A DNA stretch of 64,000 nt from Amoebophrya sp. A120 (GCA_905178155.1 CAJINV010000003.1:2623065-2687064); one strand, 5' to 3'; counted from the stretch's first letter, positions 1-59,144 are shown. Numbers and translations are program-made. The notes: a model not told the origin generated them from the letters alone.

Positions 1-3000
1 TGAACGCGCGCCGGAGAACGTCGGCGTACTTCTTCTCGGGCAGGAGAACGAGTTCGGGACACAAATGCCGGATCGAAAACATCAGTAGCGACGGCAAGGT
101 CGGCGTAACCACAGGCGAAAACAGCCCTGTCCCCGGGGCGAGGCGCGCGGACACGGTGTGGGGGGCGTCAGTCTTTTTATCGTCCATGAGGAAATTACTA
201 AAAATATGAGGCGTAGAAGTACTGGTAGAAGCAGGTCCGACGGAGTCGTCGACTCGTTGGGCCTTGGCCGCGAGCAACGTCTCGAGAGTGTGCTGGTCGA
301 GCAGGCGTTCCGTGTGCGGACCTTTGGGTAAGTGGCCAGCAGAGACAAACGCTTGGGTCAACTGCTCAAAGCGGCGCAGCCCCGCTATCTGCAGTTCGTG
401 CGTCTCCAGAACCTCCAGCGGGGGACGCAGATGTGCGATGGGTGTGCGGGTGGGGAGATACTCGTAGCTTTCAAAATACTGCGCTACAACAGCTCGGGCA
501 GCAGCAGCTTCCTGATTGGAGTCGAATGCTGTGCTTCTGGCAGCGGTTGCGGCATGTAGTTCTTGCACTGCGGGCGACTGCTGACGCTTCAACAAAGTTT
601 GTCCGGGCTCGCTGGCTTCGTGTGCTGGTCGTGCGAGATGTTGAAACATTGGGCCTCCGGCCTGCGGCATGCATATTCGCGCAACGTCGTTTTTCAGGGC
701 AACAGTCCAGAAATCGTCGAGGGGGTGCCTGGTCGCCAGTCGTTTCCCGTGGTACAGACTCAAGAAGAAGATGCACCGTGTGTCCAGGGCCTGGTCAACA
801 ACGGGGGTGCGAGGCTCTGTGTCTCCGAATACCCTCACCATTCGCCTTTTCTCCGCGTGTGCGGCCTGAAGAATCGTCCGGTCGAGGTCTTCCGCTTCCA
901 CATCAACGTCGTCTAACTTCGCGCGCGCAGCTGCGACGGCCTTGCGCTCCGAGTCGGCCAGGGCTTGCAACTGTTCTCGCCGCGCCGCAGCGTTGATCAT
1001 CGGGCCCGCCGGGGCAGCAGCTCCGTCGAGATGACCCGTCTCCCCCTCCTCGGCGCTCAAATTTCGACTGTCATCTTCAGAGGGCGCGGACTCTTCATCC
1101 TGCTCGACATCTGCCACATCTTCCGGCAGTGCATCGGCGGCTGAAACTACACCAAGCGCAGCAGCTCTCGACGTCGACCTCCCACCCGTACCTACGGCCA
1201 TAAGCTCGTCGACGCCAGCCTGCGTCGCGGACCCGATTCCGATGCGGCTGGGGGCCGCGTCGCCGAGGATGCCGACCGTCTCCTCCGGCCCCTGCAGCTG
1301 CTCCTCGTAGTACAAAACCGGCGGCGGTGGATCGCGGTAATACAGTAGCGCCGCTGCTGCTGGCGCAGCTGCTGTCGCTGTATTTGCAGCTGCGGCGGGC
1401 ACACTCGTCGGCGGTTCCTCCGCGATTCGCTCCACCTCTCCACCAGGTGCTGACTCCGCGGCCCCAAGAACTACTCCAGGAGCCGCCACGGCTCGACCGC
1501 GCGCTTGCCGTTCCCGAAGGCGGGCAGCGCGCTGCTCTCGCTCTTGTCGCTCTTCCTGCAACAAGGTTTCCGCACGGCAGATGTGCGTGCACTCCTGCAT
1601 GGTGAAGACGCGCTGGCCCTTCTCAATGGCTTCGGCACGCTCGGGGCCAAACAGCATGTTGACGTCCTCGAACCCGCCATCCGGCGCAAGTGCCTCGACC
1701 GCAAAGGCTTTCGAAAACAGGCCCGGAACCGGGAAGGGATTCTCTTCGGAACTGCGCTCCGCGACGAGCGCGTGGTCGGGATTCAGTTCGTCTCCGTCCT
1801 GGCGCAGCTGGCGGCGCTCCCGCTTGGTTTTCGCTAGTCGCGCCGACGCGGAAGCAGCAAACGCTTTTCGGTCACCGTAGGCACCGTGGAGGTCGTCGTC
1901 GTCTTGCGGCGCGTTGTCTTCCCTGATGCGCACCACCTTCGCGGCGTACAAACGCCTGCACACGCGCCCGAAATCAACGGTGCGCGAAAAGATCCCGACT
2001 TTCTCGTACCCCAAAGCGATATTAGTAGAGGCTTTCATCATCTTGCCACGAGGACCCTCCTCCTGCGAGAACTTCTTCGTCCCCAGGCAGGGCGCGAGAA
2101 AAGCGCCCCAGTCGGCCGGTTGAAAATCGAACCCCAGCTCGTACACGTAGTGCGTGAGGGCAATGCAGAACGCCTCGAACTCCTCGGGGGAGCTGCGCTG
2201 TCGCCGGTACCACGCACCGATGGCAGCACCCGTGTGGTAAAGGCAATCCAGGAAACAGCGCAGTACCTGCTCGTCAATGAAGACCGGGAAATGTTCGCCG
2301 CCTTTCGCCGCGCGCAGACTCGCAACGGCCTCGGCCCGGGTTTTGCGCTCGGAGCTGGAGGCCGCGGCCGCCTGGCCGAGCGACTGCTTGGCGCGCGCCC
2401 GCACGAAGTGGTCGTGCGCCGTTTCGCGCGCGTGGAGCAGGCCCGTCGCGATTTCCGCACTCACGTTGGACAAGCCGCGAAACACCAGGCGAAAGAGCTC
2501 CTGCGCGGTCACGTAGGTCCACACCGCGACCTCGTGGTCGTCGGACGTCATGGCAACGATGGCCAACAGCGGTTCCAGCAGTGCTAACTGCTTCAAGTTG
2601 CCCCACTGGAGTAGCAGGTGGGGCACGAAGGCCTCCAGGTTGAAGTAGTTGGTTTTCAGGCTGAGGTGCTGCAGTGTGGCGTGCCGCGCGATCCTATTGA
2701 AAGGAAAAACTCCCCCTCCCCATATTGAAAAGGTATGTTTCCGAAGTTTTGTGTTGCTGATTTGAGGTCACAGATCACATTTGTCTTGCAACAAGACAAG
2801 GGCAGAAGCTTCCGTCCCATTATCGAAGCGGTTTGTCATGCTGTTGGGCCTAAAGGGGAGCCGTTTGCCATGCTGAACAACTAGACCCATACGCCCCGGC
2901 CAGCCTGGGGATCTGGCCGCAATGCCTTCCTGCAGCACAAAGCTGATTTGTGTACACAAATCCAGCATCAGAAATTCCGTTTTGATATGGGGAGGGGGGA

Positions 3001-4834
3001 TTTTTCCTTTCGCTAGAACCAGGAACGGTCGGAGTCGGTCGGGGCCGGGACGTGACTATCAAATGTAAAAATGTCTGGGTCTGGAAAATTCTTACATTTG
3101 TCATGTATATTTTCCATGGCCCATGATGTCTGTGATGCATGCCGTAGCATCACAGATTTTTAGAGCGCTTTGCGATGCCTCTTCCGCATGAGAAACGGCC
3201 TCTCCGCGTAGCACAAACTGGAGTCCTCTTGCTGGTCATGCAATACAAAGTTTTTCAGAATCCAGAGACAGCATTACAAGTTTAGAATGTTCCATTTGAT
3301 AGTGACCGGCTAGGAGCAAGATGCGCACCAAGTGCACGCTCTGCTGCTTGCGTAGCCAGGACGGCTCTCGCTTGCTGAAGTAGAGCAGCCGAAATGCCAA
3401 CTGGAACAGGTCCTGGGGCGGAAAGGCGCGGAACAGCCACGTGCAGAGCTGCAACAAGCTCGTCTCCAGGCGGTCTGCGCAACTCCGTGCCAATGGGGTA
3501 TCAGCACTTAATACTTTCGCGTAGGAGCCGCGCAACTGTCCTCGTCGGTCCATAGAACTGGAAGCAGGATCATTCAAATTTTTCTTTTCTCTCGTCCTCC
3601 CCGGGGACGAGAACGGCAGCAGGCTGCGCTGGTCCAAGATTGCTTCGTTCTTCTCGAGGTCCACAAGAGTTTGCAAAACCTCGTGGACGAAGGCCTTTCC
3701 AACGCGCAGCCGCGTTCCCTGCGGGAATGCCGCGCGGTCCAGAGCGAGCAGGGCAAGTAAGTCGTCCGCCAAAACCAGTTTCCACTGCATCTCCAGGTTC
3801 GGCACCACAAAAAAATTGACCAGCAGGTTCCACATGCGAAACCGCGCCGAGGCGTTCCGATGCCGGCTCTGGGCGATCGTTTCCGTTTGTAGGCCTGAAA
3901 TGCCGTCACCGGAGAGTTTGTACGCCGTGTCAGGCTTCGTGGAAAGAACCGTCGAGGGCGGAGGATGGATTTCGCGTGCTGCCTCGTCGTCGCCACTCGG
4001 CGTGGCTTCTTTGTTCCCGCCATCCGGCGACGTGAAGAGGCCGCGCAGGAAGCTACCGAGGTTGTCCGCGATGTTTTGCGCGACCGAAGTCACTCGCTCG
4101 ACCAGCGTTTCCTCGCGTGGCGGCAAAAACACGCCCGGGGGGTGCTTCTCCCACCGGGACAGCAAGCGGGTGGGTTCCTCGCCCCAGGCGCACCGCACAA
4201 TGGCGGACGCGAGCAAAAAGCACTCCCACAGTAGGGTGCGCGCTATCGGGGAGCCCCTCAGCGCGGCCAGGTTCCAGGAAGCATCCGTCTGGTTATTTGC
4301 GCTAGGTAGTTCTTGTTCCGTGGAAGGATGAAACGCCGCAGCGAAAAAGCCGTCCTCGCGCTCTAGCGTGAGTGAAGCGCGCAGCAGTGGTTGCAGGGTC
4401 GCGAACAAAGTGAGTAAGGCACACTGTGTCAGGGTCTCGCCCGAACGCGGGGGGATGAAACTGAATGCGGAGGCTTCTTGACCGCTCTCCGCAAAAGCCT
4501 GCGTCGCAGGAATGAAGCGTCGCTTCTTCCGGCGGACGTAGTAGTTTTTGGCGACTGTGAACACGTCCAGCGTACACGAAGATGCGGGCTTCGGCGTCGA
4601 ACTTGTCGGAGCGCTGCCGTGTTTTTCTGGCTGCAGTTTCGCGTCCTGGTTCTCGGTGGTTGGTTCGGCATTCCCACGACCTCCGGTTGTCCCGGGAGGA
4701 GCATCTTCGGTGTGTGGCCCAATCAAGCGTCCGGACCAGTTGCGTTCATGCCAAACAATGTCGAGTTTGCCATTGCCCTCTACGTGGGAGGCGCCGTCGG
4801 AGAATATCAGGTTGCGCGCCGCAGCCTTCTGCAC
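1..4834 (-). CDS. Large hypothetical protein (>1400 aa, runs off the left edge), 3 exons split by two introners
   Basis: ORF 3236..4834 joins via micro-exon 3016-3056 to a frame that reads as protein at 2690, ~1200 and position 2 (..LLLAGH|VPAPTDSDRSW|IARHATLQHLSLKTNYF..). Start is uncertain; not every codon of 1-2690 was checked. Confidence 0.75.
2695..3015. mobile_element. Introner, family B (321 bp)
   Basis: TIR tattgaaaggaaaaactccccctccccatat / atatggggaggggggatttttcctttcgcta; TSD gatcc/gaacc; close reverse-complement relative of 36155-36476. Confidence 0.9.
3057..3301. mobile_element. Introner, family A (245 bp), right TIR internally deleted
   Basis: Starts tatcaaatgtaaaaatgtctgggtctggaa and ends ttccatttgata; perfect TSD gtgac; excision restores frame. 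Confidence 0.9.
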
Positions 4835-5090
4835 TCTGCGCTTCGCACGTTTATCGGACAGACCGTCCGCGCGCGCTTGGGCTTTTCCTGTTCCAATTTT
4901 GCGTCATTCAATTCGATCGAGACAACTAAAGTAGAGGAACATGTACATGTAGTAGTTTGCCAGACAGCAAATGCCATCGCGATCATCTGCCAGGCTTGCT
5001 TAAGCCATTCTCTCAAGGTTTTATATGGCTCAAAACATCATGCTCATGGAAGTGAAAGTGAAAGAAACCTTTTTCGAGATCAAAGCATCA

Positions 5091-8000
5091 CTATACACCC
5101 TGGAGCGCTGCTGCTGCTGATGCGGGAACTGGTGTGCCGTTTGCTGTCCGGTCCGTAGTAGTATCCGGGTTTATTTCCAGAGGTGGCCGTTCGTCAGCAA
5201 GCACCTCAAAAAAGGCGGCGCGGCATGCGAGGGAAACGTTTACCAACACGTCTTCGATGTCGAGACCCAAGTCCGCTAGTTCGTCGTCGGAGAGGTCCAC
5301 GAGTTCTCCCAAAAACCGACGTCCGAGCAGCCTCAGTTTCATCACCTCTGCTTGCCGCTTCATCTCCTCTTCCTTGTCCGCCAGAAATTGCTCCAGCTCT
5401 TCAGCCCTTTCCGCCTCGGTTACTTGTGTTCCAGAAACCGCTTCGACCTCACCTGCTTCTACTGCGGCCCCGCCCGCCGCTTCGGCAACTTCTTCGCCTG
5501 GTTGCTGTCGCAGTTCCTGTTGCCTGGCCTTCTCCGCCTCGACCTGCTGACGTTTCTGGTCCTCGAAGGATCGGCGAAAATCGCGCTCGATGGCGTTGAT
5601 CCGCGGCTGGAACTCTGCCTCGACGTCCAGGCAAAATTGCACGCACTTCTGGACCAAATTTGCTTCCTCGCTGTTGTCAGCAGTAGATGCGTTGTTCGTC
5701 GTGTTGTCCCCGTGCAAGGCTAGACACTGAGTCATTGTCCTAACAATCGGCTGCGCCACTTGGAAAAAACTCTCTGCTGGCGCCGAAAAGTCCGTTTGTT
5801 TTGCATTCGTCCCCTCCTGCTCGTGACTAGCAGAAGCAGCGGCTCCACCATTTGTGCTTCGACGTTGATTCTTCGTGCCTTTCGTTCTTTTTCGCCTGCT
5901 GGCACTCGACATTTTAGGCCCAGAAAAATTATCGTCGTTGCTCATGCTCTCCTCGGACTTTTGCAGCTTCGCCGCATAGGTCCCGGCGGTGCGCCAGAGC
6001 GACACCGCCAGGTTTTCTATCTCCACATTTCGCAACCCCGGCTGCGCCAGGAAACGCCGAACCTTGTCGGCATACACATCTTGGCGTTTCCGGGTGCGCT
6101 TCTCCTCTTCCCGCTGCTGCTCTGCCAGGAGCTTCTTCGCCTCGACGTATTTCTGTTGTACCTCCTTGTCTTTCGCAAGTTCTGCATTTCGCTTTTCCGC
6201 GTCCTCTGTCTGACCCAGTCCGTCTCGCAGGTATGCGAGATTCACGGGAGCCAAATACGGAGTAGATGAATCTCGATAAAAATAATTCCCAGAGGACCAC
6301 ATTGGGCTATTCATTTTCCGTGCTTGCGAAGTAGATGCGTCATCGACAGCAGTGCTCTCCACTGCGTGGGGCAGGCCCGGCAAGTTCTGTCGCTGGAAGT
6401 AGTTCTTTCCACCAACTGCAGCAAGTCGATTCGCTCCAGGGTGCGTCAGGTAGAACTGCGCGTCAGCTAACTTGTAGAAAAGAGAATACTCGCGCAGCGC
6501 CGCCTCGTCAATGGTGCCCTCACTCTCGTCGTCTCGGGCGGATTCAGGGTGGGAATTTTGGATCGATGTGTAGTTTTCATAACGGTCCAGCTCAAGAAGT
6601 AGGGAACTTTGCCAGTTTCTCATCCTTTCCTTCCTGTTTCCTCCGAGAGCGGTTCGTAAAAAGGGACTATCCAGAGCAGACATGCGGCGATCTAGAAAAA
6701 ACTGTGCGGCACTGCGGCGGTTAACCGCGCCAAAGAGGTTCCGTTCTAGAAACAAACTCCCTTTCCAGCACTGTAGCTGTGATTCTAATGACATCTCCGC
6801 ATTTGTAGTTCGTGGTTCGTGCTCCAGTTCTCTTTCCACGCCATCCGGACTAGCAGTTTTACCAGCGGAAGTCGCGAGTTTGTTCCTCAGAGTCGTGAGT
6901 TCAGAATGCAGAGCTACCGTCCGACGGGACCAGTGAGACGGCAGGGGGCACTTCGTGTCCACCTCAAATTCCCGTGCGCTCGGGGGAAAGTCGCCTTCTA
7001 CCCGACGCACCAACAGATGCAAGGGGCGCTTTTCGTACTTGCCACACAAGACGTCCAAGTTTGTGTCGTTCTCGAGGTACGCCTTGTTGCCCCTCGCCTC
7101 TACTTCACCGCTCGCGGTCTGGTGCCCCAGCGCCGACATTTTGACGGCTTTTTCCGCAAAAATGTCATTCGCCACCAGCACCTGGTCGCCCTTTTTGAGT
7201 CCGACCCTACTGCCCCAACTTTTTGGCTTGACCGCCCGCACTTTCATCCCGTGCACGGACAGACCAAGGTCCGACTCATATGCGGTCAGCTGGAGGTAGC
7301 GCGTGCTGTATTTCTTCCGCAGAAAAGCAAAGCCGACAGTCTCATGATTTGACGAAGTAGAGGCGGCGCGGACGATAAAACGCAAAAGCGCGCCGTCCGG
7401 ATGGTTTCCCGGCCAATTCGGCAAGTCCGAGATGAAAGTGCCGGACACGTTGAGTAGCGTGTCGCCCGCTACCACACCGTTCTGGTACGCTTCCGATTTC
7501 ACTTTTGTCGGCTTTATCTGAAGATGGGTCATCTCGGCAAGCACATCAGTGGTCGCCAAGCCAGAGGGCTTCGCTGCAGCAATTTGCAGCAAATCCTCCA
7601 GTTTGTACAAATACTTGTCCACCTGGGTAACGGTAACCGTCGGAAAATCGCGGTACTCCAGCACAAACCCGAACAAAGCGAGCAAGTACGCTTGCGCGAC
7701 GGCTGGGGACATAACCGGGAGTGGTTTCACTTTCATCTCGTCTGTCGGTGCGTCATTATTTTCAACATGCGCGGAAGTTCTCGTGGGGCTTCGGTTATGT
7801 AGTACATGATCTTGAACTACATCAAAGTACCGTCGCAAAATCTCGAGGACTTGCTCAGGTGCGGCGGTGGAGAATTTCATCTGCCAACCGGTCAGGCCGT
7901 AGCTTTTTATTTTCGCCGCGGAACTCAAATGCGCCAGCAAGAACGGAGCAGCACCACTCTTTGCAGCTGCATCGACTTTCATTGAATTTTCAGCAGGAAG

Positions 8001-8210: not shown

Positions 8211-8489
8211 GGATTCCTTGGAACAGTTGCGGCTGGGCAGATTGAAGGCACGGCTGCGCTATGGGCGGGTTCTCAAACGGCACAATCTCAACTGTTACAT
8301 GATTTCATCTCATGCAGAAAGAACAACATCACCATCGCGCTTCACGCGATCAAACTTCTTCTCGTGACAATCTTCCGGCGTGGGCGCGCAAAATAGCATC
8401 AGAATCCGTTCCATATCTGTAGATGCAAACCGCGCAAGGATGTTCCCCTTAGTTTCACTTTCGCTACTAGGTATTCTTGCATCACAGAC

Positions 8490-11400
8490 CTACTTATGTA
8501 ACAGTTGAGAGTGTAACGGGTGAGAGAAGCGCCATAAGGTCCACGGAAGGATTCGGGGCAGCAGGCCGAGACTGAGCTCGAGGATTCGCGCCCGCCGCCA
8601 GCGGTACTGGGCGAAAAACAGTTCCTCCTGCTTTTGCATGCGTTTGTTGCGCTGGCCAAGGGAAAGCCGCCCCGTTTTCCGGTTCACGTGCACCGATTTT
8701 CGCTGGTGGTAGATCTTTTGCAGGTAGTCGTCCACCTTCTTCCAGTGCTGGGACATGTCCCGCAGGTGCGCCAGCGTCAAATTCTGGCGCAGGCCGAACA
8801 CGTACTCCAGATGTCGCGCGTAGTAGTCGTCCTCGCTGAACAACTGCAGGGAGCAGTGGGCCGAAAACCAATAATCAAGCGGCCGCCAGTGGGCGACAAT
8901 TTTGTCTTGTTTCCGCGCTTTGCGGATGTAGTGTTGGTCCAACAGCAAGTCATCGGCGTTGTCTTCCTCGTCCTCCGCGGCATCGTCTGGGAGGAGCTGT
9001 TGTTGCACGTTGTCGGCGAGGGTCGCGGCATTTACCACTTCCGCTTGTCGTTCGGGAGATATCACTTGCGGTGCCGCGTCCTCTCCTTGTGCAATTTTTT
9101 CGTCGGACAGCCCGTCTTTCGGCGAACTCTCAAAGACTGAGACTGCAGTGTTGACAAACGAAGCTAGCTGTCCGAAAAACGAACTCTTCGGCTGTTGTTC
9201 CCCTGCGCCTTCTGGTGCCTCCATACTGTGCTGGCCCTCGAACGTCATGCCGTGCGGTTTCATGTTTAGTTTTCCTTGTTGTCCCTGCTTGGTCGCTGGC
9301 TTTGCATTCAGTTTTCCTTTTCCCTTTGTAGGGGTTCCAGCTCTCTGTTCTGGGGTGCCTTTTTTTGATGTTGGCGACGAAACATTCAGGCGGCCCTTGG
9401 ATGTAGCCTTTTGTGGCGCTGCTTTTGGACTTCCCGGGGCGGAAACCGGTTTTTTACCTTTCTTGCTCTTGCCTTTCTTTTTGCCTTGTTTTCCCTTGCC
9501 TTTCTTGCCCGCGTGTAACTGCAGAAGCTGATTTCCAGCAGCCTGCGCCATAGCAGGGTCTTCTGCACCCTCCAGGGAGGGTTCTCTCACCCCCGCGGTG
9601 ACAGGACCCTCTTTTCCTTTCAGTATGTCTTGCTGCATTTGCTTTCGGCGCTCGCGCGCGCGAATGCGATTTGCCGCGACCTGCTTCTCGTGCTGAAAAT
9701 CTGTTCCCAACTGGTCGGGATGTTCTTCCGTTGTATTCTGGTCGACGATTCCCTGGCCGGGTGCGGTCGGCTCCAAATCGGAATAGTCCGAGGACGACGA
9801 GGACGCTAAAGTTTCACTCCCTACATGAGGCGCCATGCCGGTAGCAGTACTAGCCGTTGATGTTCTTCCTCGTGTTTTCATCTTCCCGGAGGTACTAGGA
9901 GCACGGTCACGGAACCTATTCGGACTATCCGCCTGCTGGGGTGCTTCAATATTTCGCCGTCGCTTTCGCTTGAGGAGCACCGCGTCTGGCACATTTTGCA
10001 GCAAAGAATCCGGGTAGATAGCTCCGAAAGTCTCGCCCTCGCCACCGACAATGTCGGAGATTTGCAGCACCAGCCGCAGAATCGCGGGGCCGAAGACTAC
10101 GCGCTCCAGCTCGAGTTGCTCTCGCAGCAAACGGTCTCGTTGTTCCAGAAGGGTCGGGTCGACGGCTTTTTGCGCGTCTCTATCGATTGAACCCTCCTCC
10201 TCGTCCTTACCGTTCACTGCAGCCTTCATCTCGAACACATCGACACCCTTGGGCACTGGCTTCGATGCCGGTGCCGGCGTAATCCCGAGCGCTTCGTGTC
10301 GTAGACACTCATCGTACAAACGAGTCAGCACGGCCAGCCCATTTTCCAGGTCCCCGGCGCGCAGGTCGCACGATATCAGCAAGCGACGCTTGAGGTTCAC
10401 CGCGATCAAGTTCTTGAGCAGCAACTTGTCGGTGAAGCTGCGCAACACCAATTGCACGTCGTCTAAGCGCTGGTCCTCGAAAGCCGCGGGAAGAGGCCGC
10501 GGGGGCGACGTAAAAGTTGATTCCCGTCCTCCCGTTTTGCTCCGCAGATTCGCCACGTACAGGGCGTGGTGCAGCACGACAACGCACTCGCGGCCGTGTG
10601 CCGTGGGCTGCGCCGGCAAAAATTCGTCCTCCAAGAAGTCCGAAGTAACACGAATGTGTGGGCGGGACAGCAAGAGCAGCGTTTCCCGCCAGCGCTTGAA
10701 CAACAAAAACTTCACCGTGCTGAAGGGCAAGCCAATCGGGCAGTCGAAGTGCGCCATGGAGTGGAGGATCCAGTAGTGCAGCTGGGGCACGTTGATTCGC
10801 AACAAGACGCATAGTTTCGCGAAAAACGGCAGCAGATTCACGGTCGCGCTCGCGTTTCGAATCGCGTCTTGTTCGCTTCGCTCCGGTTGATTTTCCAGGT
10901 CTTTTGCATTCGGGCGTGGAACGAAGTGCCAGATGGAAATTAAAAAAGCAAACTCAGCGAGCTGAGCGATCTTGTGGCAGATTTGCTTAACCCGCTTGCG
11001 TCGCAGGCGACGAAGGACAATCACGATTTGTACGTTCGCATCTGTAGTAGTTCGTGCTCCAGATGGATTTTGTGTCGAATTATCCTGTTGCGGTCCCGAT
11101 GGATCCACCTCGTGGAAAGCGCGAACGGCATCGCGCTGCGCGGTCCGCAGCTCTCGAAGACGCTTGGACTGCTTCTTCGCGATGAGATTCAGTAGCAGCT
11201 GGAATCGTTGTTGCTGAAGCTGTGCCGCCTCTTCTTTTTCTGCGACCGCCTGCATCCAGCCTGCGTCATCGTCCTCTGCGAGTTCCGCACTTTTCACCGT
11301 CCGCTCCTGAAATCGGTCCTCCGACTCTTGTCCGCTGCTGTACTCGTCTTCGTCGCCGGATGACATCTCATCTTCGCCGTTCGCGGGACGAATGGGCTTT

Positions 11401-23611: not shown

Positions 23612-23663
23612 CTTAGGTTGTACAATCACCACGACTTAGCCTTAGGTTGTACAATCGCCACGA
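23612..23663. repeat. Short direct repeat, 2 x 23 bp
   Basis: cttaggttgtacaatc(a/g)ccacga at 23612 and 23641, intergenic. Confidence 0.7.
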
Positions 23664-24424: not shown

Positions 24425-27400
24425 CTACCCCCGCCCCAAATGCATCTGGAAGAAGGGCGAGGTGCGGACGTCCCTGAGCTGGATCCGACGCGCGGGGTCC
24501 TTTACAAGCATCTGAGAAATCAAGGATGCACACTATTACAGTGAAAAGTGCCCCCCACCCCCAAAGTTGCAAAAATTTGTGATGCGACGTTTCCAAATGA
24601 AAACTTTTTGTCATGCAAGAAAGTAGTACGAATCTTTCTGATGCAGAGTCCAGTCGTGTTTCGCATCGCTTGCATGACAAACACCGCTCTTGCTGGGATC
24701 TTTTGCGATACAAATTTTTGCCATTCACGATCGGAAATCTGTGATGCTGATCCATGCAAGAGGGCGAATGTTTCATTTGGAAAGGTTTGCAATACAAATG
24801 CTTTCAAGTAGTTCGGGGGTGGGGGCATTTTTCATTGTAATACACACGCGTCGGACATGATCCGCTTGTCGATCGGGAACTTCGGCTCCTTGCGAAGGAT
24901 GCGTTTGCACGTTTTCTCCGTGCTCTCGTCCTCGAACGGCGGTTTCCCGAGGAGCAATTCGTACAGCATGATGCCCAGCGCCCACACGTCGGTCAAGTTT
25001 CCCTCGTACTCCCGGCGGTGCTGCACGATTTCCGGGGCCAGGTAGTCCAGAGTGCCGCAGAAGGTGCTGCGCTTCAAGCTGACGGACTTGCACACCGTCC
25101 CGAAGTCCGCAATCTTGACCAGGCCGTCCCGCCCAACCAAGATGTTTTCCAGCTTTATGTCCCCGTGCAGGACGCTGTTCTCGTGCAGGTAGGTGAAGCC
25201 GTCGCAGATCTGGTACATAAACTCCGCGGCCTCCCTATGAACTGCAAAAGTATCGCACTAGTATAAATTGCATTACAAATTAGCCCAACATTACAAATTG
25301 AATTTGTAATGCTGGCTTCCCTTGAGAGAGAGAGCTGTAAATGCAGAAATGCAATTCCAATTACTACGAGTACGATACTTTTACGCAGGATACTCCCGCT
25401 CGGAGAACGCGCTGGCGCCGTTGGTCCCCGTCAAGCGCTCCTGCAGCTTGGCGTACAGATCTACGTCGCACAGTTCCAGAAGTAGGTATATTTTCCGGTC
25501 GTCTGTAAAGTAGTCGTAGAACTTCAGCACGTGGGGGTGGTCGAGCACACTGTGCACCTCGATCTCGCGCAGCAGAAAATCCTGCATACGCAACTGCTTC
25601 ACCTGGAGTTTTCATGTTGTCATGTGGAACATCATCATCATGCAGATGCACGTTACGACCGATAGAAGAAATACGTCGGCGTCGGTGAGATTCTATCTAT
25701 CACAAAGAAAAACAAAGAGGACGCAAGTCTCTTCGACAGTTTTTTAGACGGAAATAATATCAGGCACGCAACGACCTACCCCTACGAGACAAAAACTACA
25801 TCCAGATCCACGCAAGGAAAACGAAGGAGGTCAAAAAGAAACCTTCGACTTCCGGATGATTTTCAGGGCGTACAGATCAGGATTTCCCTTGCCGGCAGAG
25901 AAGAAGGCGGGTGAAGGGGTGAAGCTAGGACGTGGCCGCACTTTGTACAAGTGCCCCGAGTATCAGTTGCAAACGTAATTATACCGCACTCGTACCAATG
26001 GCAGGACTGCATGACGAATCGCTTAAACTGAATTATCATTATTCATACAAACTCCATTGATTTGCATATGCATTTCTCCGCTTTATACAGGTATACGATA
26101 CTTTTGCACTGCATACCGAGGTACCCTGGCCGATTGTTTCGAGCACGTCGAAGTCCTTCAGCGTGTTCGGGCTCTGGTAAAAGTTTAAGCGGTTCAGTAG
26201 CGAGTTGGTGAAATCGCCGGGCGAAGGCTGCTGCTGACTCAGCGCAGTGGACACGGAGTGGGAGTTCTCTTCGGACAGGGACTTTTGCGCTACTTCGACG
26301 ACCAAGCGATCGCCAGGCTGCGGTTGGAGTTGGTCGGGACTGGGGAACACCGATTGCTGTTGGTGAGTCGCCGTAGCAGGCGACTTCATTTTGCTACTAC
26401 TCGACGAGGACGTCGTCGCCGCTCCGCCTCCAATTCCACCCGGGGGAACCACTTTGATCAGATGCTGCGTTTTGGCCACATGGTTTTTTAACTTGGCTTG
26501 AAAAGGATTTGTGGAAGTTGTAGACACGACGACCGAGGAAGAAGAGCAAGAACGACTCGACGGTCCAACGCCAGCAGGGCCGGTCATGGCGGTGGACGGC
26601 ACCACCTGTGCGGCCGGCTGGGGCACCATTTGATGGTGGAAACTTTTAGGTACCGCGAGCGGCTTCTTCGGCGAACTGGTCGGACACTTCAGTATGGAGA
26701 GAAAAAAGTTTGCCACAGTCACTACATCACCAACGACACTTCAACTTGCAGGCTTTGCATTACAAATTTTTCTAGCATCACAGCGTTTTCTTGTATTGCA
26801 GAAACATAGGGGAATCCCTTATGAAGTTTCCCTGTGATGCATTTTTACACATGACAGAAAGTGCTGCATTGCGAAAATGCGCATGAGTGATCGTGACGAA
26901 CTTTTTTTGTTTGATATTCAGCTGGAAGTTGTTACTCCAGGTCTGCGTCTTCCCCGGCGTGCGGGGCTGCAGGTGCTGCGAACAAGCTTGCGCACTGCTA
27001 GAGGCCGCAAGATGTTGCCCGCGGCCCTGTTGGTGGCTCACCAGATGGCCCACTTCCAGCGGACTGGCAATCCGCGGTACGGACGCCAGAATAGGCGTTG
27101 CCACGGACGGGGTGTTTGCGGTGGAAGTGGCGACGGGCGTCGTTACCGGTCGTTGCACCATCACAGAGGCGCTACCGCCGAGAGCCGCTGCTGCACCCTT
27201 GTTGCCGTGCATGCTGAGGGGCGAAGACGCTGGCGGCGCCTGTGAAGTTGTTGTGGTCCCGCCAATCGAGGACGACCCGTTGGCCGGAAAGGTTTTGTAG
27301 TACGTTGGCGTGCTTGCAGAGCCGTCGCGGACAATCCCGCCAGTTTTTGATTCCGTTCGGGTGGAGGTGGTAGAGGGCGGTGGGAAGTAAGATAACGCCG

Positions 27401-35745: not shown

Positions 35746-38700
35746 TCAGGTGCCATTGGTTGCAGGATCGGTCGAGAGGTACTGCAAAAACTGCGTCCAG
35801 TCCTCTATCAAAGGGAAAAATCCCCCCTCCCCATATCGAAACGAAGTTTCTGATGCTGGACGTGCGTAAACAAATCACGTCTGTCCTGCTGGAGAGGACT
35901 GCAGGCATATGCAGAGCCTGGGTCGTGAGGTTTTGACGTAGGGGACTAGCATGACAGATGTCGGCTCTGTAAGCCCAGCAGCATCACAAACCGCCGGCAT
36001 AACGCGGCGGACTCTCTGGCTTTGTCTTCTTGCAAGACAGACAGGATTTGTGACCTCAAATCTGCATCACAAATTTTCAGACGAATGCGGTTGCAATATG
36101 GGGAGGGGGGATTTTTCCTCTCAATATCCTCCTGCGAAAATTCCTCGTTGCTGTTATCACTATGAAAAATCCCCCCTCCCCATATCAAAATGGAAATTTC
36201 TGATGCTGATTTGCGTACACAAATCAGCTTTGTATTGTAGAGAGGCACTGCGGGCAGATCTCTAGGCTAGATAGGGGCGCACGTGTCTAGTTGTTCAGCA
36301 TGGCAAACGGCTCCCCTTTAGGCCCAAGAGAATGACAAATCGCTTCCATAATGGGGCGAAATCTCCTGCCCTTGTCTTCTTGCAAGACAAATATGATTTG
36401 TGACCTCAAATCAGCAACACAAACTTTCGAAGTCATACCTTTTCAATATGGGGAGGGGGGATTTTTCCTTTCAATAGCTGTTAAAGGAGCTGTTAGGTCC
36501 TGCAACCATGGAGTCGAAAATACTGGCCAGCGAGTTTGACGAGTTTGCCCCTCCTGCTTTGTTTCCGTTGCCACCACCGAGCAGGGAGCCGAAGACGGAA
36601 GTCGAGGACGTCGCACCGCCAAGAAGGCCTCCGCCCCGACCCGTAGTGGTGGCTGCCGTGGTCTCACTGTCCGACGTGAAAAATCCGGACGGGCCTGTTT
36701 GGCTTGTGGGCGTGGTGCCAGCGGCCAGCAGTTGCCGCAGTGCTTCGCCGAAATCGCCTTCTTCGTCGGTCCGGCTCCGATCGCGAGGCCGGGCGGGCCA
36801 ACCTTAATTGACACGAGGTATTAAAATGGATATCAAAAGCAAAACTCTTTTGCCAGTATCAACAACGAGCCAGGATTTTTCGTTTATTTCTAACGGATGA
36901 TTCCTTTTCGTTTTCCCGCAACATTTTTGCATTCGCAAAACAATTCCTCGTAGAACAAATACCTATCGCCGGTGTCCCCCCACCGCCTCCAGGGGTGGGA
37001 CCACCTCCGCCGTGGCTGCCGGCGGACGGCGTTCCGCTGTTTCCATTTAATGCGGAGGCCGCTTGTATCAGCGCGGCGGTCTGCAGCATAGTGGGGTTGC
37101 TCGCCAGCAGGGCGGCCGCGTGGACCATCTGGTGGTGCTCGTTCGCGGGGAACCCGATCGGGGGCGGAGGCCCGAAGGGGTTCGGCATACCGGGCGGCGG
37201 AAGTCGCGAAGAGGATGAACTGGAGGAGCCGCCTTTAATATTCCCCCCGCTGCCCCGCCAGTAATTGTCCACTACGTGGTGGTCGCGCCACTGGTCTGCA
37301 CCACTGGTCTGATGCTCAGATATCAAATGTAAAAATGTCTGGGTCTGGAAGAATGCAACTTGTCATGCTGTCTTTGGAAGGTAAAAAAAATCTGTATTGC
37401 ATGACCAGCAAGAGGAGTTTAGTTTGTGCTACTTGGAGCGCGCGTTTCTCATGCGGAATACGCATCAGAAGGCCCCTTAAAAATCTGTGATGGTCGGCCA
37501 GGCATTACAGACATCATGGGTTATGCAAAATATGCATGACAAACCTGGCAATCTTCCAGACCCAGACATTTTTACACTTGATATCAGAACCACGCCATCG
37601 ACTGCTCGAGGAGGCGGAGGACCCACCTCCACCGGAGCCGTTGTACAGACCGCCCCCATGGTGATGATCGCGAAAAAAAGACCCGCCACTATTTTCGATC
37701 CGGCGCCGCTTTTGCTCGTAGAGCGGATCTGGGACGGGGAGCATGTCCCGCCCGCTGCCACCGTTCCCTTCCGTTTTGCTGCGCGGACCAAAGGATCCTG
37801 TGCAAAAGTATCGCACTAGTATAAATCGCATGACAAATTTCCTCAGCATGAGAAAGAAAATTTGTAATGCGGATTTAACCTGAGAAAGAAACTTGTAATG
37901 CATGAATGCGATTAGTACGAGTACGAGACTTTTGCACAGGATACAAAGTTGGTTTCCCGGTCCCGGCGCTGCTCCATACTGGCCATGCGGCGCAGTGTAT
38001 CAACTGTAAAAATGTCTGGGTCTGGAAGAATCCAACTTGTCATGCTGATTTTGGATTCTAAAAAAATCTGTATTGCATGAGCAGCAAAGCGAGTCCAAGT
38101 TTTGCTACACGGAAAGAGCATTTGTCATGCGGTATAGGCATCAGGAAGCCCTCACAAAATCTGTGATGCTAGGGCATGCATCACAGACATCAGGAGTCAT
38201 GCAAAATGTGCATGACAAACCTGGCAATCTTCCAGACCCAGACATTTTTACATTTGATACAGTGCCACCTTGTAATCCTCCGTCTCCTGGCCGTCCGGAG
38301 GCATGAGGTCGATGGCCTGTGGTTTACCCTCCTTGGACAGGTCTAGAAGGAAACTCACCTGGATTTTTGATAATTTGGATATACAGTGCGGCAGGGTGCG
38401 ATTACAAATTTTGATTTTCGCACTGAAGAAATAGTAAATTTGGAATTTTTACCGACAACAACAAGACCACCATCAAGAAGTAGATGTTTAAGTTGTACCT
38501 TATCGCCAACTTCGAAACATTCGAGGTATTGGTCCTTGCGCAGAAACGCGTCTCCACCGTATTTTTTGTGTATTTCTGGGCACTCGGGTATGGTGGGGAC
38601 AAACTGTAACTATTCTACTTCTGTGCGTTTTGACCCGTTCGTTTTGTTAGTCGTGTGCGCTTTGCCGATGCAGGTGTACTATTCCATCCATGCATCATTC

Positions 38701-39639
38701 AGCTTTGCGTTTACGAGCACGTGGGGGTCAAAAGGAACAGAATGTAGTTCTACAGGTTTGGATTTGCGTATCCACGAAACCGTAACTGTTGTTCCTGATT
38801 TGTGTGATGAAGTTCAGCAATTCATCTTACCGACTCTGTAGGAGTAGGATGAATTGTTGTTGAGACGAATAAGTAATATCACCATTGTCAGTGGCAGTGA
38901 AAAAAGTTTCTGTGCAAGTAGCTTCTACTTACCCTCGATCCTTTGCGTAGCTTTTTATCCTTCCGATGTATCTTAGCTGGCCCTTGGAATCTGTGAAGCT
39001 CGTAGCCTCGTTATTGATTCCCACAACGCCTGCATTCGTCTTGGTCGCATGCATGATTATCGGTTGCAGAGCCATGCGTAGGACGTCACCTGTTCAAACT
39101 TTTGTAATTTAATTTTCTACATACATACAACTCGCGTACGGTTCAAGTTCTACAAGCAAGAACAATGTCAATTCCTCTTTTCCTCCTGTTAATGTTTGTT
39201 AGACACGACCACAGGCATCGCGTGGCAATCAAAATTGTGCAAGTGGCGTGGTTTTCCAAAAAATGTACTTATGAGTACCTTTTCTCCGGTTGATTATCAG
39301 CTCTCTCAATTGGGCTTTCTGCTGGTGTTCGGGGAGCTTATCAAACTCGGTAAGTGCGGTGCGCAATTCCAGTGATATCTTCTCTGGCGCCACTTCCAGG
39401 AGCGACTCGTAGTGGGAAAAGAAGTCTCGACTGGGGCCGGCCTTAGCGCCGCCCCCCTCCGCGCCCGGGGCTGCGGCCGGGTCAATGGAGGACGACGAGC
39501 CGCCGGCAGCTCCGCCTCCAGGGGCTGCGGCTCCACCAGGAGCCACCTCGCTCAAAGGATCATCCCCCGTCGAGCCACTACCTGCGAGCGCCTGCAGAAA
39601 GTCCTCCATTTCGGCGGTGCTCGTATTAGGCTCCACCAT
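35746..39639 (-). CDS. Cold-shock-domain (CSD) nucleic-acid-binding protein, ~11 exons
   Basis: Assembled exons read YIGRIKSYAKDRG|YGFV|ECPEIHKKYGGDAFLRKDQYLECFEVGDK|VSFLLDLSKEGKPQAIDL, then a Gly/Ser-rich tail to stop 35746-35748; mix of GT-AG introns and introners. Confidence 0.82.
35806..36126. mobile_element. Introner, family B (321 bp)
   Basis: TIR tatcaaagggaaaaatcccccctccccatat; TSD tcctc; excision gives FSQE|DWTQF. Confidence 0.92.
36155..36476. mobile_element. Introner, family B (322 bp)
   Basis: TSD gctgt; only 28 bp from the previous element; excision gives SFNS|NEEF. Confidence 0.92.
37321..37583. mobile_element. Introner, family A (263 bp)
   Basis: Full ~31-bp TIR; TSD tcaga; excision gives RGSE|HQTS. 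Confidence 0.93.
37794..37943. mobile_element. Introner, family C (150 bp)
   Basis: TIR atcctgtgcaaaagt.tcg.act; TSD caaag; excision gives TNF|GPRSK. Confidence 0.9.
37998..38259. mobile_element. Introner, family A (262 bp)
   Basis: TSD cagtg; excision gives YKVAL|RRMAS. Confidence 0.93.
38589..38770. mobile_element. Decayed introner-like non-canonical intron (182 bp)
   Basis: tat...gta termini, residual inverted match caaactgtaactattc / gaatgtagttctacaggtttg, flanks tcggg/tccac; removing 182+5 bp restores the CSD motif GYGFVEC. Confidence 0.55.
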
Positions 39640-42007
39640 CGACGCGCGAGCTACAGAAAAACAAACCCAGGAGCGTCAAAGCTGACAGTGAAGACCACCC
39701 GGTCGTGCACTCGCGTATCAAGGAACGAATCAATCAGCGTACAGGAAGAAGAAGAAGAACAAGGAGCGAGTCACAATTTTACGAAAATATTAAGGGAACA
39801 GGCAGAATAAAAAATAGGAATCGACCAGCACACGCCCGTTGGCAGCTTTGCTTGAAAAAAGAAAATTTTCAAAAAATGAAGACTACAACTGAAATATACT
39901 ACTGCGTTGCCCAAATAGAAAAAGTGTTTTACTACTTGTAGTTATTTTTACGAGAAAGAAACAGACGCAAGAAGTTGTAGCTCAGCCGCAAGCCACGGCC
40001 ACCGCTACGAGCACTTCTTGCAAAACAAAGTAAGTTTTGTATTTGTTGTTTGTCTTTGTCCAAAATTACATTGCAGGTGGTAAACTGTTGTTCGTTCTTG
40101 CTCCCCTCAAGGGAGAAGAAATAACGAGCTCGAAAAATTCTAAAGGGAGGAGAGGTGTCACAAGACTTGTATCATGTAGAGATGCGACGAAGACGTGCGT
40201 CCAGGGTTCATCCTGCTGAAACAACCTCTTCTATCTAACGATTGGCAGTCGCAGCTCGAATAAAAATTTGCACAATATGTAGCCTATTAATTTGTGCTTG
40301 TGCGTGTGCACGCTTGATGGCAGTCAAAGAAGGTGTAGTCAGCTTCTCCAACTCCAATTTAATATCATGGTGTTTCATACTGTCATGCAATTTGCAACAA
40401 CGACTTCCTCGTGTCCTTGAAGCTATCTGGGTAGACAGAGATAAACCTAGCGTCCCATGTCTATAGAAGAACTAGGAAGAGTGGTGCAACGCAACCTGCT
40501 GTATCTTCTTTTTCTAAATAGTCGAGTTTCCAGTTTAGCATGCCGACTGTATGTAGTAGAGACGGCAACAGGTTATGCGTATGCCGCAGCTGCAGCATAT
40601 AGCAAAGCCCTTACCCCTTATTCTTGTGAGCAGCATACGTAAACCTAGACTCACTGACCGGCTTGATGTGTCGGGAGAGAAGCAAAATAGCTAGTAGAGA
40701 TCCTAGGCACACTCATACACTGCTCCTTATTTTTTACATGAGGTACTAGAACAAGAAAGTTGTCGTAGGGTAGTCAAAAAAGTATTCAGATGTATCAACT
40801 TGTCGGTAAACATTGATGTAACGCGCGACGTCGAGGCGCTAACGCGTTGCCCACCGTGCCGGCGCCGAATGCAAACCCTTTCTCCTGCTCGTCGTCGTCT
40901 GGCACTTACAATTACAACAAGCAGTCCCACTTTGTGTTTCTCTTTCTAGTGCAAATTCCACTACTATGATTCAGAAGCAACGCAATCTTCGCTCGTTTTT
41001 TGCAAACGTCGTTGTTGAATTTTATACCTATTCGAGAGCTTCTTGTATGTCACTCAAGTCGTTTCTTTTTGATCGCAGATACAACATAGCATTTTTGCAA
41101 TGCCCGGACGCTTCCAGAAAAAAATGCTGGCTACTTGAGGATGAAAATGAAGAGCATTTGCGATTGTCATTCAAAAAGAACGGGATAGAGCCGCGAAAAA
41201 CGAAAATGCGACCGCGTCTTTCATCACTAAGCATATCAATATGGGGAAGGTCAATATTTTTAAGGGTAACCGCACACGCATGTGTTGTAGGCTGCAAGCA
41301 GAGCTACAAGATTAGAAGCGAAACATCAACTACACGCGATTGGGAGTAGAAACGCACACCACACGGAGCCATAAGACAGGAGAAGAACAAGATGATTTAG
41401 TACATTGTGAATGATTTTCTCTTCCTGACAGGACGCTCGAGGGAGTGACTCAGAGATTCCGCTCAGAAGTTGAGGCAGCACCACGACAGGAAGTTTTATT
41501 TGAAGGGTTCTCACGCCATGACAATGGCTATCAATCTAGTATCTATGCTGTTTTGTAATTGTATGTGAAGTAAGAATAAGAAATCGAAACGTGTAATCGC
41601 AACTATACTCGACGAACACTTCGGAAATATTATCGGCGGTGACATCACATTGCTGCATGCTGGCAGACTATGCGATGAAATATTCTCCATACTCGCGGCA
41701 GCGCAGCAGGGCGGCAGGAGATGTGCGGAAGGGCACTAGATCAGGATTTGCACCTCGTCGCGCACCAAGTTTTGATCGTCACCAACCCTGACAGAGGCGC
41801 GCATGAATGTGCCTTTACAAGAATCAATGTAAGTAATTCATAGAATAGTACACAAACACACGCTTTTCCTTTTGCGAACTTTCAGCTTCAGGCGGCGTCT
41901 AACGCTTTCACGACCGTTCTTGTTTCATCCGGGTAGGGTGAGTATCTCGGCCACTGCTCGAAGATACAAAAAAAAAATCTACGTTGAAATTCTGTTAGTT
42001 TTTCTTT

Positions 42008-45000
42008 CTATCGGCTAAAAATGCTGCGACCTGACTCATATGCGTTGCAAAAGTATCGCACTACAGTGTACCTTTAGAAACAACATCACAAATTTTTATT
42101 TTGGCAAGAACAAAAGTAGTACGTACTTCATGCATTATGCTGATTCAACTTCAAACAGCTTAGAAAAGAAAAGGACGGTTTTATTCATGATCACGCATGA
42201 CTGCAAGTGCAATTTAATCATACGAGTGCGATACTTTTGCAGAGCATAACTCACACTCCCGGTCTATGGCCTTCTCAAGTGTTACATTCTCAACTGTTGC
42301 ATGAATTTGTGATGCAAGAATGGCAAAAGTCAAAGGGGTGACCTTGCGCGTCTTGCATGACAGATTCGGCGCAGATTCTCAGCCTGTTTGGCTCTTCGAG
42401 AATTTGTCATGCAAAGCAGCTTGACCGTGTCAATGCTGATTGTAATTCTGCATGACAAATCTAAATCATGTCACAGTTGAGAATGTAACATTTGAGAATC
42501 CCATACGGTCCAGCACGACAAAAACCGACTCCGCATCGCGGCCATGAAGGATTTGCGCGAGCTATTACAATGAAAAATGCCCCCACCCCCGAACTTGGGA
42601 GCATTTGTGTTGCAAACCTTTCCAAATGAAGCATTCGCCCTCTTGCATCTATCAGCATCACAGGTTTCCAATCGTGGATAGCAAAAATTTGTATTGCAAA
42701 AGACCCCAGCAGGAACGGCGCTTGTCATGCAAGCAATGCGATACACGCCTAGAATCTGCATCAGAAAGATTCATACTCCTTTCATGCATGGCAAAAAGTT
42801 TTCATTTGGAAACTTCGCATCACAAATTTTTGCAATTTATTCAGGAGTGGGGGGCATTTTTCACTGTACTACGAGCGACTTTTTCACGTACGCTGGCTCG
42901 TGCTGCAGTAGCGCCGCCAGGGCGTAGTCGCGGCGGTCAATCGAAGTCAAGCCAGCTTCGTGCGCGACGAGCACATCGATAATCTGTTGTGCCAGGCGCT
43001 CGGAGTCCACACCCAGCGCCGGCAGCCGTTCGGCGATGAGTTCGGGGCTCTTCTGGAGGTGCACAGCATTTTGGCCACCCAGGTGCACGTGCTTGGCCTG
43101 CCACGGATGGAGCAACCCGCTCTGCAGCGTTGGTGCGCCCGTAAAGACCACCATCCCGGCTTCGTCCGGAAAGTACAGGTTCCAAGTTTCCGAGCGTGAT
43201 CTACTTCCACCAAAGTAACGAGGCTCCTGCGGCGAAGTTGTGGCAGAGCTGCTCGTCGTGCTGGTCTCCTTATTTCCACCTGCCGTAGTTGATGTTAGGG
43301 CGTTTATTGCCATCGCAGTGTTGACGGTTGTGCTGTTTGTTCCTTCTTGTGAGCTTCGTTCCGCTTCGGCGTCATCTTCCACGAGTCTACCATCGACAAA
43401 AACTTGCCGGGACAAAATACTGATAGCAGGCATGTCTATTTCACCCGAACTTGGTGGCCGTGAAGATGTAGTCGGGCGTATAATTTTTTCCGTCGAGGAC
43501 AACTTAGACTTTTTCACCGTCAGGTCGTGCGCGGTAGAGGACACCTCCTCGGAGGAGCCCCCTGAAAAAAGAGATGTTCTTGCGCCGCCGCCCTTGTTAG
43601 CAGCCTGTAAAGAGAGTAGGGCTGCGGTCAGCGTTCGATTGTTCAGATTCAAATGCTATCCAATGTAAAAATGTCTGGGTCTGGAAGATTGCAACTTGTC
43701 GTGCTAAATCTGCAGCATGCAAAAATCTATGTTGCATGATTACCAAAAGTCGCCCAATTTTGACCAAGTCGGGAGGTAGTTTCTCATGCAGGATAGGCAT
43801 GAGAAAGATCGCACAGAATCTGTCATGCTAGGTCCGGCATTCCAGACCTCATGGGTCATGGAAAAGCAGCATGACAAATCGCGCATTCTTCTAGACCCAG
43901 ACATTTTTACATTTGATACATGCTGAAACAACAGGTTGCTCTCCTGGTCGACCACGTCGTGGGCATTATTATTTCCAGACTCAGTAGGGAGTACAACAGT
44001 CGGAGCTGAAGTTGTTCTACTATCGTACCGCCACAGGACCGTGACGTTTCGTTTAGTAGTGGGAACGTGATTCGCCAGGGCGGACCGCACAAATAACTTC
44101 TCGAACTTGTCTGCGGATATGCTTTCGCCTTGTTGCAGGTCGAAAGCCACACAGGAAAATCTGAAGTTCGTTTGTGCCAAGGAATCCAACACGCCCTGCT
44201 CAGCGTTCTTTGTTACAACTTCACGTCCGGCGCGGTCCTCTCCGCGCAGCACGACAGGTGGTCCTGCTCGGGAACCCGGCGGCGGGTGACTGCTTTGCTG
44301 GTCGACGTGTGGAGCAAAGTTCAGGAAGTCGTCCCGGGGCCATTGATGCAGAACCAGAAAGAGGGGAATGTCGCTTTCAGCGATTATCTGGTTCTGCTGT
44401 TGCAGGTACCGTGCGGCGATACGCTGTCGCGTCAGCGTCACGTAATAATCCAGCGACGGAGTCGTGGCAGTCGTGTCCCGAGCAGCTCCCTGTCGTGGCG
44501 GGCATGCGACCGCCGGACCTGCGACGGCGACCGTCAACGACCTTCGACTGGCCAGCTGCAGCCACATGGCATCTTCGCTTCCCCCACCACAATCGCTGCA
44601 AACCTGCGAGGGAGGAAAAAAGTCCCGCGCCCGCAGTGTGGTGAGTAGGCTGGTGGTGGTGGGTGCAGCTGCTACGGGCGGCCGCACATGGACATCTTGT
44701 TCAAGTGAGGTGGCTGCTCCGCTGTTACTTGTTGAAGACTTCTGGAGAGGCCCAGTAGACGAGGGAGCGCTTGTTCCACCGCATCCCACAACTGACAAGA
44801 GCACCCCTCGTGGAAGTGCATCTGCGGTTGGTGGGAGGCGATTGGGGTCCGGATGCTGAATGAGAAAGTCCTCTGCAAGCGCTTCGAACAAATTTTCCGC
44901 GCTATCAACCACGTTGCTGCGGCCCCACTTTCCCGAGCCAAAAAAGCGCTTGTTCGAGGCCGACGAGTCGTTGTATGCAGCTCGGGAGCTGCGAGCTGGA

Positions 45001-59038: not shown

Positions 59039-59144
59039 GGGAAGCCGTCTTCACCGGAAGGGCATGAGCGCCCGCGATGGGGCACCCCGCCGGGAAGCCG
59101 TCTTCACCGGAAGGGCATGAGCGCCCGCGATGGGGCACCCCGCC
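59039..59144. repeat. Perfect tandem duplication, 2 x 53 bp
   Basis: gggaagccgtcttcaccggaagggcatgagcgcccgcgatggggcaccccgcc at 59039 and 59092. Confidence 0.9.

Follow-up and report, generated by a model that had tools for sequence, protein, structure and literature searches.

Orientation, removal and cut register of introner elements in Amoebophrya sp. A120

The introner elements of Amoebophrya sp. A120, which were described by Farhat et al. (2021; PMC7789003), were analyzed in a 64,000-nucleotide stretch of its genome (CAJINV010000003.1:2623065-2687064), called the window here. The insertion of these elements occurs in either orientation about equally, and clear pairs of mutually inverted relatives were removed from transcripts both ways. 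Moreover, seven imperfect target duplications all fit one cut, from which we infer that removal starts 1 nt before the 5' TAT and ends 4 nt after the 3' ATA of an element. The system is a known one, in which both the elements and the idea of unusual splicing are already in print, and the measured cut rule is the new part. Two exon pieces of the window matched A120 proteins P0001 at 100% and P0022 at 99%, which identified the source.

Orientation of the elements and their removal from RNA

Thirty elements, 150-361 nt long and bounded by TAT...ATA inverted ends, were curated in the window by self-comparison and an end scan. For this, 25 of 36 end-scan rows were kept, 5 elements were added by hand, and 11 rows were dropped as overlaps or weak hits. 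The flanking 5-mer target site duplication (TSD) was perfect (5/5) in 21 of the 30 elements, the 5' arm began with TAT in 25, and A occupied positions 11-14 in 24-28. With terminal inverted repeats (TIRs), a target duplication, multiple copies and no coding capacity, the elements had the properties of non-autonomous TIR transposons (miniature inverted-repeat transposable elements, MITEs). They also showed the TAT inverted ends, the 3-5-nt direct repeats and the RNA-supported, repeated non-canonical introns of A120 introners. Elements are named below by family letter and first position; they were given no strand of their own, and the host genes lie on the minus strand.

A sequence-only reading of the window had placed all host genes on the minus strand and had proposed that close relatives were mutually inverted, and its element coordinates were right. 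After removal of the elements, the longest stop-free frame was on the minus strand in 8 of 9 gene regions tested; the exception, g46 (197 vs. 211 aa), had its canonical introns left in. In a Pfam search, 2 of 16 exon pieces passed the cut-off, matching a 2OG-FeII domain and an Obg-type GTPase on the minus strand. The B elements 2695..3015 and 36155..36476 were inverted relative to each other (87.9% over 315 nt, E 1e-107), and their interiors with the ends trimmed gave a z of 37 inverted compared to 10 in the same orientation. The D elements 24534..24842 and 42563..42871, both 309 nt, were likewise inverted (87.8%, E 3e-108; interiors, z 41 vs. 9). B2695 was also inverted relative to B35806 (35806..36126). 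A further inverted set, beyond those proposed, was E42265 (42265..42505) against E8260 (8260..8536) and E61832 (61832..62064).

Among the other proposed inversions, two held less firmly. Compared with the six A copies of majority orientation, A3057 (3057..3301) was clearly inverted (interior scores 66-194 inverted vs. -8 to 20), while A15373 (15373..15626) was only weakly so (45-58 inverted vs. -2 to 39 same); A15373 and A3057 scored 50 in the same orientation and 6 inverted. The C-like element C16869 (16869..17037), in the Obg GTPase gene, deviated in the proposed direction from C18514 (18514..18669), C25236 (25236..25392) and C37794 (37794..37943), again weakly (interior z 4.5-9.2 inverted vs. 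-0.2 to 2.5 same). It was only about 61% identical to these three copies, A15373 and C16869 together spanned about 61-69%, and no similarity of C16869 to the three was found by blastn.

To extend the comparison, a scan for family-A ends was made on the JACKZZ01 contigs of another assembly. It returned at least 133 loci, with 204 hits, 195 of them distinct; all loci counts given here are among the matches listed. The host strand was assigned to 140 of the 195 elements, and the 55 uncalled ones were left out. The strand caller had been trained on window exons, where it called 26 of the 30 window elements right and 1 wrong, with 3 uncalled. Among the 63 family-A elements, 27 had the orientation of the window reference copy and 36 were inverted (p 0.31), and among the 90 family-assigned elements of all families the numbers were 38 and 52 (p 0.17). 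Judged by reading frame and not by RNA, all 22 cases that passed the filters (8 A-inverted, 4 A-same and 10 other) showed agreement between the separately chosen frames of the two flanks once the element and 5 nt were taken out; in 15 of them the length was not a multiple of 3. A 6-bp duplication was rejected, as the sixth base matched in 44 and 21 of the 140 loci elements, near chance.

Removal from RNA was followed in two stretches of the window. The runs X3-X6 were taken as RNA by guess, backed by their skipping of GT-AG introns, and the RNA contigs in 2300-20400 came from four RNA-like runs, i.e., two samples of one study. Here the RNA joints corresponded to the element plus 5 nt for 7 of 9 elements. 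B2695 (TSD 4/5) was skipped from 2689 to 3016 (326 nt, 321+5) in one contig of run X3 (depth 3.4, side 36). A15373 (TSD 5/5) was skipped from 15366 to 15626 (259 nt, 254+5) in 4/4 runs; the contig concerned also skipped five GT-AG introns, which read CT..AC on the plus strand and so fit a minus-strand host, and its 2169 letters equaled the predicted spliced length. The joint of C16869 (TSD 3/5) ran from 16863 to 17038 (174 nt, 169+5) and that of C18514 (TSD 5/5) from 18508 to 18670 (161 nt), both in 4/4 runs. J17192 (17192..17400; TSD 5/5, 3' ATA decayed) was skipped from 17186 to 17401 (214 nt) and F19427 (19427..19787; TSD 5/5) from 19421 to 19788 (366 nt), each in 2/4 runs, and G19917 (19917..20141; TSD 4/5) from 19911 to 20142 (230 nt) in 1/4 runs. 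A3057 (TSD 5/5) and E8260, an old element (TSD 2/5), were without RNA cover. Removing both elements of the A3057 region gave a stop-free frame of 1442 aa compared to 922, and removal of E8260 opened a frame of 2326 aa (with the element end taken 3 nt short, in the same phase).

In 24200-44199, record contiguity, piece boundaries or length counts indicated the removal of 11 more elements. RNA pieces were contiguous across H26693 (26693..26916; TSD 5/5; pieces 26116-26687 and 26917 onward) and across I28901 (28901..29087; TSD 4/5; pieces ending at 28896 and starting at 29089). Piece boundaries coincided with four elements. Pieces started at 26116 next to K25961 (25961..26115; TSD 5/5), which interrupts the glycine-rich loop of the kinase and whose removal restored the frame; a piece ended at 35800 before B35806 (TSD 5/5); pieces started at 42872 after D42563 (TSD 5/5), carried 322/351 letters before that start, and the frame was restored; and a piece ended at 43652 before A43657 (43657..43918; TSD 4/5), with one side seen. 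Between 35801 and 39276, two contigs (X3 and X6) of one sample held 1319 letters with the frame intact. This count equals the loss of B35806, B36155 (TSD 5/5), A37321 (37321..37583; TSD 5/5), C37794 (3' end ATC; TSD 5/5), A37998 (37998..38259; TSD 5/5) and M38589 (38589..38770; TSD 2/5) plus four canonical introns, A37321 and A37998 being of majority orientation. A first model of 1399 letters with a broken frame was dropped for it. The fit needed M38589, an old element with a decayed outer stem that was added by hand to restore frame and count, and another acceptor, and these two boundaries were chosen afterwards. Micro-exons lay between neighboring elements, 23 nt at 36127-36154 and 11 nt at 42249-42264, the latter separating L42039 (42039..42248; TSD 5/5) from E42265 (TSD 5/5). 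B35806 and B36155 might pair with each other, but by the 1319 count the 23-nt exon between them is retained.

D24534 (TSD 5/5), in the protein kinase gene, was probably skipped as well. The X3 and X6 contigs hold 1821 letters to the left of 26116, where only 1273 bases precede D24534, no X3 contig covers the listed interior positions 24566, 24588 or 24681, and removal of the element restored the kinase C-terminus. In the same gene, the frame was restored by the removal of C25236 (TSD 5/5). Frame continuity was also the basis for H21846 (21846..22051; TSD 5/5), which lies outside both RNA-mapped stretches. In the prolyl-hydroxylase-like gene, A46160 (46160..46431; TSD 4/5) was assigned from the annotated protein P0001 and three homologues, and P0001 reads through the B-like element 46819..47138 (TSD 5/5) and A47208 (47208..47472; TSD 5/5). 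Removal of A56914 (56914..57163; TSD 5/5, perfect arms) gave 854 aa compared to 448, and E61832 (TSD 4/5), in a dolichol-phosphate mannosyltransferase-like gene, was assigned from A120 P0022 and its A25 orthologue P0023. Taken together, the proposal that elements work as introns in both orientations was borne out by the clear pairs B and D, whose members were removed both ways, that of B2695 in one thin contig.

Cut register and end bases

Where the two copies of a TSD differ, the mRNA tells which copy's base is kept. On the transcribed strand, RNA contigs placed the cut after at least position 3 of the TSD in B2695, 4 in C16869 and 2 in G19917, and RNA pieces placed it at position 4 at most, i.e., before 5, in I28901 and, through the mismatched base contained in the piece ending at 43652, in A43657. 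In I28901, the other register gives a stop codon. A Val at the junction of A46160, present in P0001 and the three homologues, put the cut after at least position 4, and so did the same Gln at the junction of E61832 in P0022 and P0023. With the cut that fits all seven, the intron would read N-TAT...ATA-NNNN.

Under this register, GT..AG occurred in 0/30 window and 2/140 loci elements, a 3' AG in 3/30 and 11/140, and G at +1 in 11/30 and 37/140. Even when any register was allowed, GT/GC/GA..AG was possible in 2/30 and 19/140 and AT-AC in 0/30 and 6/140 elements, so that most elements lack the ends of ordinary U2 or U12 introns. The two bases at either end of the intron are free, with a composition at chance level. 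For instance, the +1 base of I28901 is A compared to G in its twin, and the intron was still removed. The canonical introns of the same genes were GT-AG in 9/9 cases (five shown in RNA, four inferred), and 8 of the 9 start with GTA. The idea that the ends give ATAG, and with it an AG acceptor, on both strands fails because the duplication begins directly behind ATA. The next exon started with a purine in 83 of the 140 loci elements. In Table S4 of PMC7789003, the nine predominant non-canonical end pairs of A120 all have T at +2, in line with the register, to which aligner preference may contribute.

Three positions were kept on the transcribed strand in the pooled 170 elements (30 window and 140 loci): T at +2 in 169, A at +3 in 170 and A at -7 in 169. 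The positions +4 and -5 drift, while +2, +3 and -7 do not, and the bases around -7 vary. Deviations were unevenly divided between the arms. At the third repeat base the 5' arm had 9 and the 3' arm 1, compared to 1 and 7 at bases one and two (pooled Fisher p 0.003; 0.018 in the window alone, where the pattern was first noticed). As T-to-C and A-to-G changes run opposite ways at the two positions, a single mutational strand bias would be no explanation. These sequence patterns indicate that the ends are read with polarity.

All 30 window elements were predicted to fold better than their shuffles (z -2.0 to -16.5, 12 shuffles each), with both strands alike. G-U and A-C mismatches in the stems numbered 19 and 37 in the window (p 0.02; control 35 and 26) and 87 and 81 in 134 loci elements (p 0.70), a test that is weakened because many arm mismatches are inherited within families.

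Mechanisms of removal

We lean slightly toward a dedicated RNA pathway outside ordinary GT-AG splicing, resembling that of Euglena, which would read the element ends and remove elements lying either way. Its outline would be as follows. Insertion would create the 5-bp duplication around the TAT...ATA ends in either orientation, and the cDNA would lack the element plus 5 nt that the DNA-like run retains, two steps that the observations above and below bear out directly. The transcript would then be cut 1 nt before TAT and 4 nt after ATA, as the seven duplications suggest, releasing N-TAT...ATA-N1N2N3N4. Removal would be scarless because 1+4 equals the 5-nt duplication. The arms are predicted to fold into a hairpin that brings the cut sites together, and the machine would probably also read the polar motifs U+2 and A+3 at the 5' end and A-7 at the 3' end. 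Since the inverted repeat supplies these motifs on both strands, orientation would be irrelevant. By analogy with the proposal for euglenids, a cut-and-ligate catalyst might finally release a linear or circular intron. A separate pathway is favored by end bases at chance level next to strict ordinary introns, and canonical introns that stay GT-AG are probably not what a relaxed, shared spliceosome would enforce. In A120, 98.6% of the position-conserved introns are GT-AG (PMC7789003).

The sequence-only reading had argued that directional splice signals are at odds with introns working in either orientation, so that recognition would rely on the symmetric TIR stem plus the TSD. This argument is incomplete. 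Inverted ends give the same signals on both strands, so orientation alone does not exclude the spliceosome, and Polarella and Aureococcus have spliceosomal introners that function in both orientations (bioRxiv 10.1101/2020.10.14.339549). The case against the ordinary spliceosome stands because the end bases are free. As for the symmetric stem, the reading was right that recognition must depend on symmetric ends, but the polar deviations (pooled p 0.003), the lack of a G-U preference in the stems and the poorly paired terminal bases of several spliced copies argue against a purely symmetric one.

Several points weigh against a dedicated pathway. The RNA evidence consists of cDNA contigs, and a catalyst, a lariat or a circle was not among the things observed. 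The register comes from seven elements, two of them through annotation or homology, and their consistency by chance has a probability of 0.15 (0.39 for the five RNA ones). In the independent loci alone, the end polarity was 4/1 vs. 1/4 (p 0.21), which is not significant. Furthermore, T at +2 and A at +3 match the GTA start of 8/9 canonical introns, and A-7 could be a branch point. Selection for RNA pairing was not apparent from the G-U vs. A-C test of the stems, and in 7 of 30 folds, including those of the spliced C16869, C18514 and H26693, the probability of the three terminal pairs was below 0.55. In addition, A120 has 83 of 89 spliceosomal proteins (PMC7789003).

The main alternative is a modified U2-type spliceosome without U1, which would use an N|NUA donor, a branch point at A-7 and a 3' cut set by distance, with the inverted repeat supplying both signals on either strand. 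We regard this explanation as rather doubtful. It would account for the near-invariant +2T, +3A and -7A on the transcribed strand amid drift at +4 and -5, and for the GTA start of eight of the nine canonical introns. No U1 snRNA was detected in A120, where inverted or direct repeats are present in 15% of the canonical introns (PMC7789003); in Fritillaria, a conserved U2 spliceosome is kept although the introns are mostly non-GT/AG (PMC13326754; PMC11282704). Against it, the two bases at each intron end do not depart from chance, the bases around -7 vary and sit in a predicted helix, and ordinary introns keep strict GT-AG.

The remaining explanations are far less probable. A hairpin with direct repeats is the usual setting of template-switch artefacts, and with all RNA evidence coming from cDNA contigs, the joints might be switches of the reverse transcriptase in elements that are not really spliced. 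This is very improbable, as long frames and conserved genes would be disrupted if the elements were retained, and the assembled form is the skipped form. Moreover, precise joints occurred at the 3/5 duplication of C16869 in 4/4 runs, and I28901 escapes the stop only in the observed register.

Excision from DNA, programmed or somatic, before transcription had also been suggested, in keeping with the transposon anatomy and with RNA and DNA runs from different samples. It was not supported and is equally improbable, because the DNA-like run X1 retains elements that the RNA contigs drop. X1 covers intergenic DNA at a depth of 21-30, its eight listed contigs extend 24-75 nt into element ends, and the contigs 25365-26722 and 38235-42301 span K25961, M38589 and L42039 whole. 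No element-free allele was found among the 15 of 864 X1 joints listed, in a run whose contigs drop rare variants, which may be the assembly's own source and for which the life stage is not given. The offset 1+4 cut with its polar motifs would also fit an RNA strand.

Self-splicing of the elements as ribozymes, suggested by the strong predicted folds and by the A at -7, which is reminiscent of group II introns, is the least probable of all, given lengths of 150-361 nt, interiors unrelated across families, the need for both strands to be catalytic and no Rfam match in the window. Bulge-helix-bulge introns of the tRNA endonuclease type, in which an exon tail pairs with an intron tail in a 4-bp helix, were rejected by inspection, since the two tails here are direct copies of an arbitrary 5-mer and not complements.

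Several known systems resemble or include these elements. The A120 introners of PMC7789003 are the same elements, with inverted repeats that start with TAT followed by seven variable bases and then As, with 3-5-nt direct repeats and hairpins, and with non-canonical ends, for which an alternative splicing mechanism was already proposed there. No mention of element orientation was found in the text of that paper, which gives the border position as variable or unknown, whereas orientations, register and polarity were measured here. No statement on the orientation or cut register of Amoebophrya introners was found in the literature searched, which included PMC12130899, PMC9860276, PMC11282704, PMC12621601 and PMC13326754 and had subscription papers, the figures of PMC7789003 and preprint supplements outside its scope. 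Same-orientation similarity was required in PMC12130899 when families were built.

The introners of Polarella glacialis and Aureococcus are likewise DNA-transposon introns with target duplications in either orientation (bioRxiv 10.1101/2020.10.14.339549). They carry GT/GC/GA and AG sites or recruit them from the duplication and show an orientation bias, whereas the Amoebophrya ends are free, lack such canonical sites, and showed no bias (27:36). The non-canonical introns of Fritillaria (PMC11282704; PMC13326754) are also derived from TIRs and TSDs and lack GT-AG, but they prefer AG-AC or AG-AT ends and show evidence of processing by the U2 spliceosome, while no preferred end pair was seen in Amoebophrya. 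The nonconventional introns of Euglena (PMC12501133; PMC11282704) are similar, with terminal pairing, no GT-AG, a likely MITE origin and strict canonical introns alongside. Their code has a triplet that pairs, with spacers of 3 nt on the 5' side and 5 nt on the 3' side (PMC12501133), and a geometry of this kind, the 3' spacer being the longer one, may hold in Amoebophrya too; for fixed spacers of this type, the seven bounds here fit 1 and 4 with a chance of 0.15, the folds being predicted only. The euglenid signature N3-CDG...CH'G-N5-6|R differs from N1-TAT...ATA-N4, and the lineages are unrelated. Full-length intron circles were reported for Euglena (PMC12501133; PMC11282704), whereas a circle in Amoebophrya would be a proposal by analogy.

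More tentatively, the dedicated pathway might be an additional mRNA splicing machine, evolved in Amoebophrya and independent of the spliceosome, which repairs transposon insertions by measuring 1 and 4 nt from the terminal triplets. If so, any insertion of any orientation and sequence would be erased from mRNA, as the offsets sum to the 5-bp duplication, and the junction of an excised circle would contain a complete copy of the target 5-mer. Transposons of the hAT type have CAG ends and 8-bp duplications, and the 3+5 spacers of Euglena would then be a convergent solution for an 8-bp duplication. A non-spliceosomal mechanism would be the second case after euglenids of genome-scale mRNA splicing without GT-AG, and it would explain how transposons spread through exons at little cost. 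With 29,850 repeated introns in A120 (PMC7789003), the mechanism concerns tens of thousands of introns. A fixed register makes it testable at the level of reads, as the register and the named positions predict the site of a lariat branch or circle junction and the bases to mutate.

Other features of the window

All 30 curated elements were inside reading frames, and none was accepted in intergenic DNA or within a canonical intron. The motif TGTNATGC or its complement occurred 74 times in 7317 element bases compared to 6 times in 56683 other bases. Its copies were common to unrelated families and often about 32 nt apart, which suggests putative binding sites for one shared DNA-binding protein, likely a transposase. 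A motif-bearing remnant without clear ends was found at 21480-21680, 3' of a stop codon. At 40170-40470, a weak inverted repeat with a 4/5 flank repeat lay in an untranslated or intergenic stretch; it was not removed, as it sits within the unbroken RNA piece 39277-41127. An intergenic element of about 2.7 kb at 58980-61681 had introner-like inverted ends without a 5-bp duplication, and its interior contained tandem repeats of about 94-240 nt. In addition, an exon of 1266 aa at 51149-54946 on the minus strand carried a VLRF1 release-factor domain and gave a weak VATC hit.

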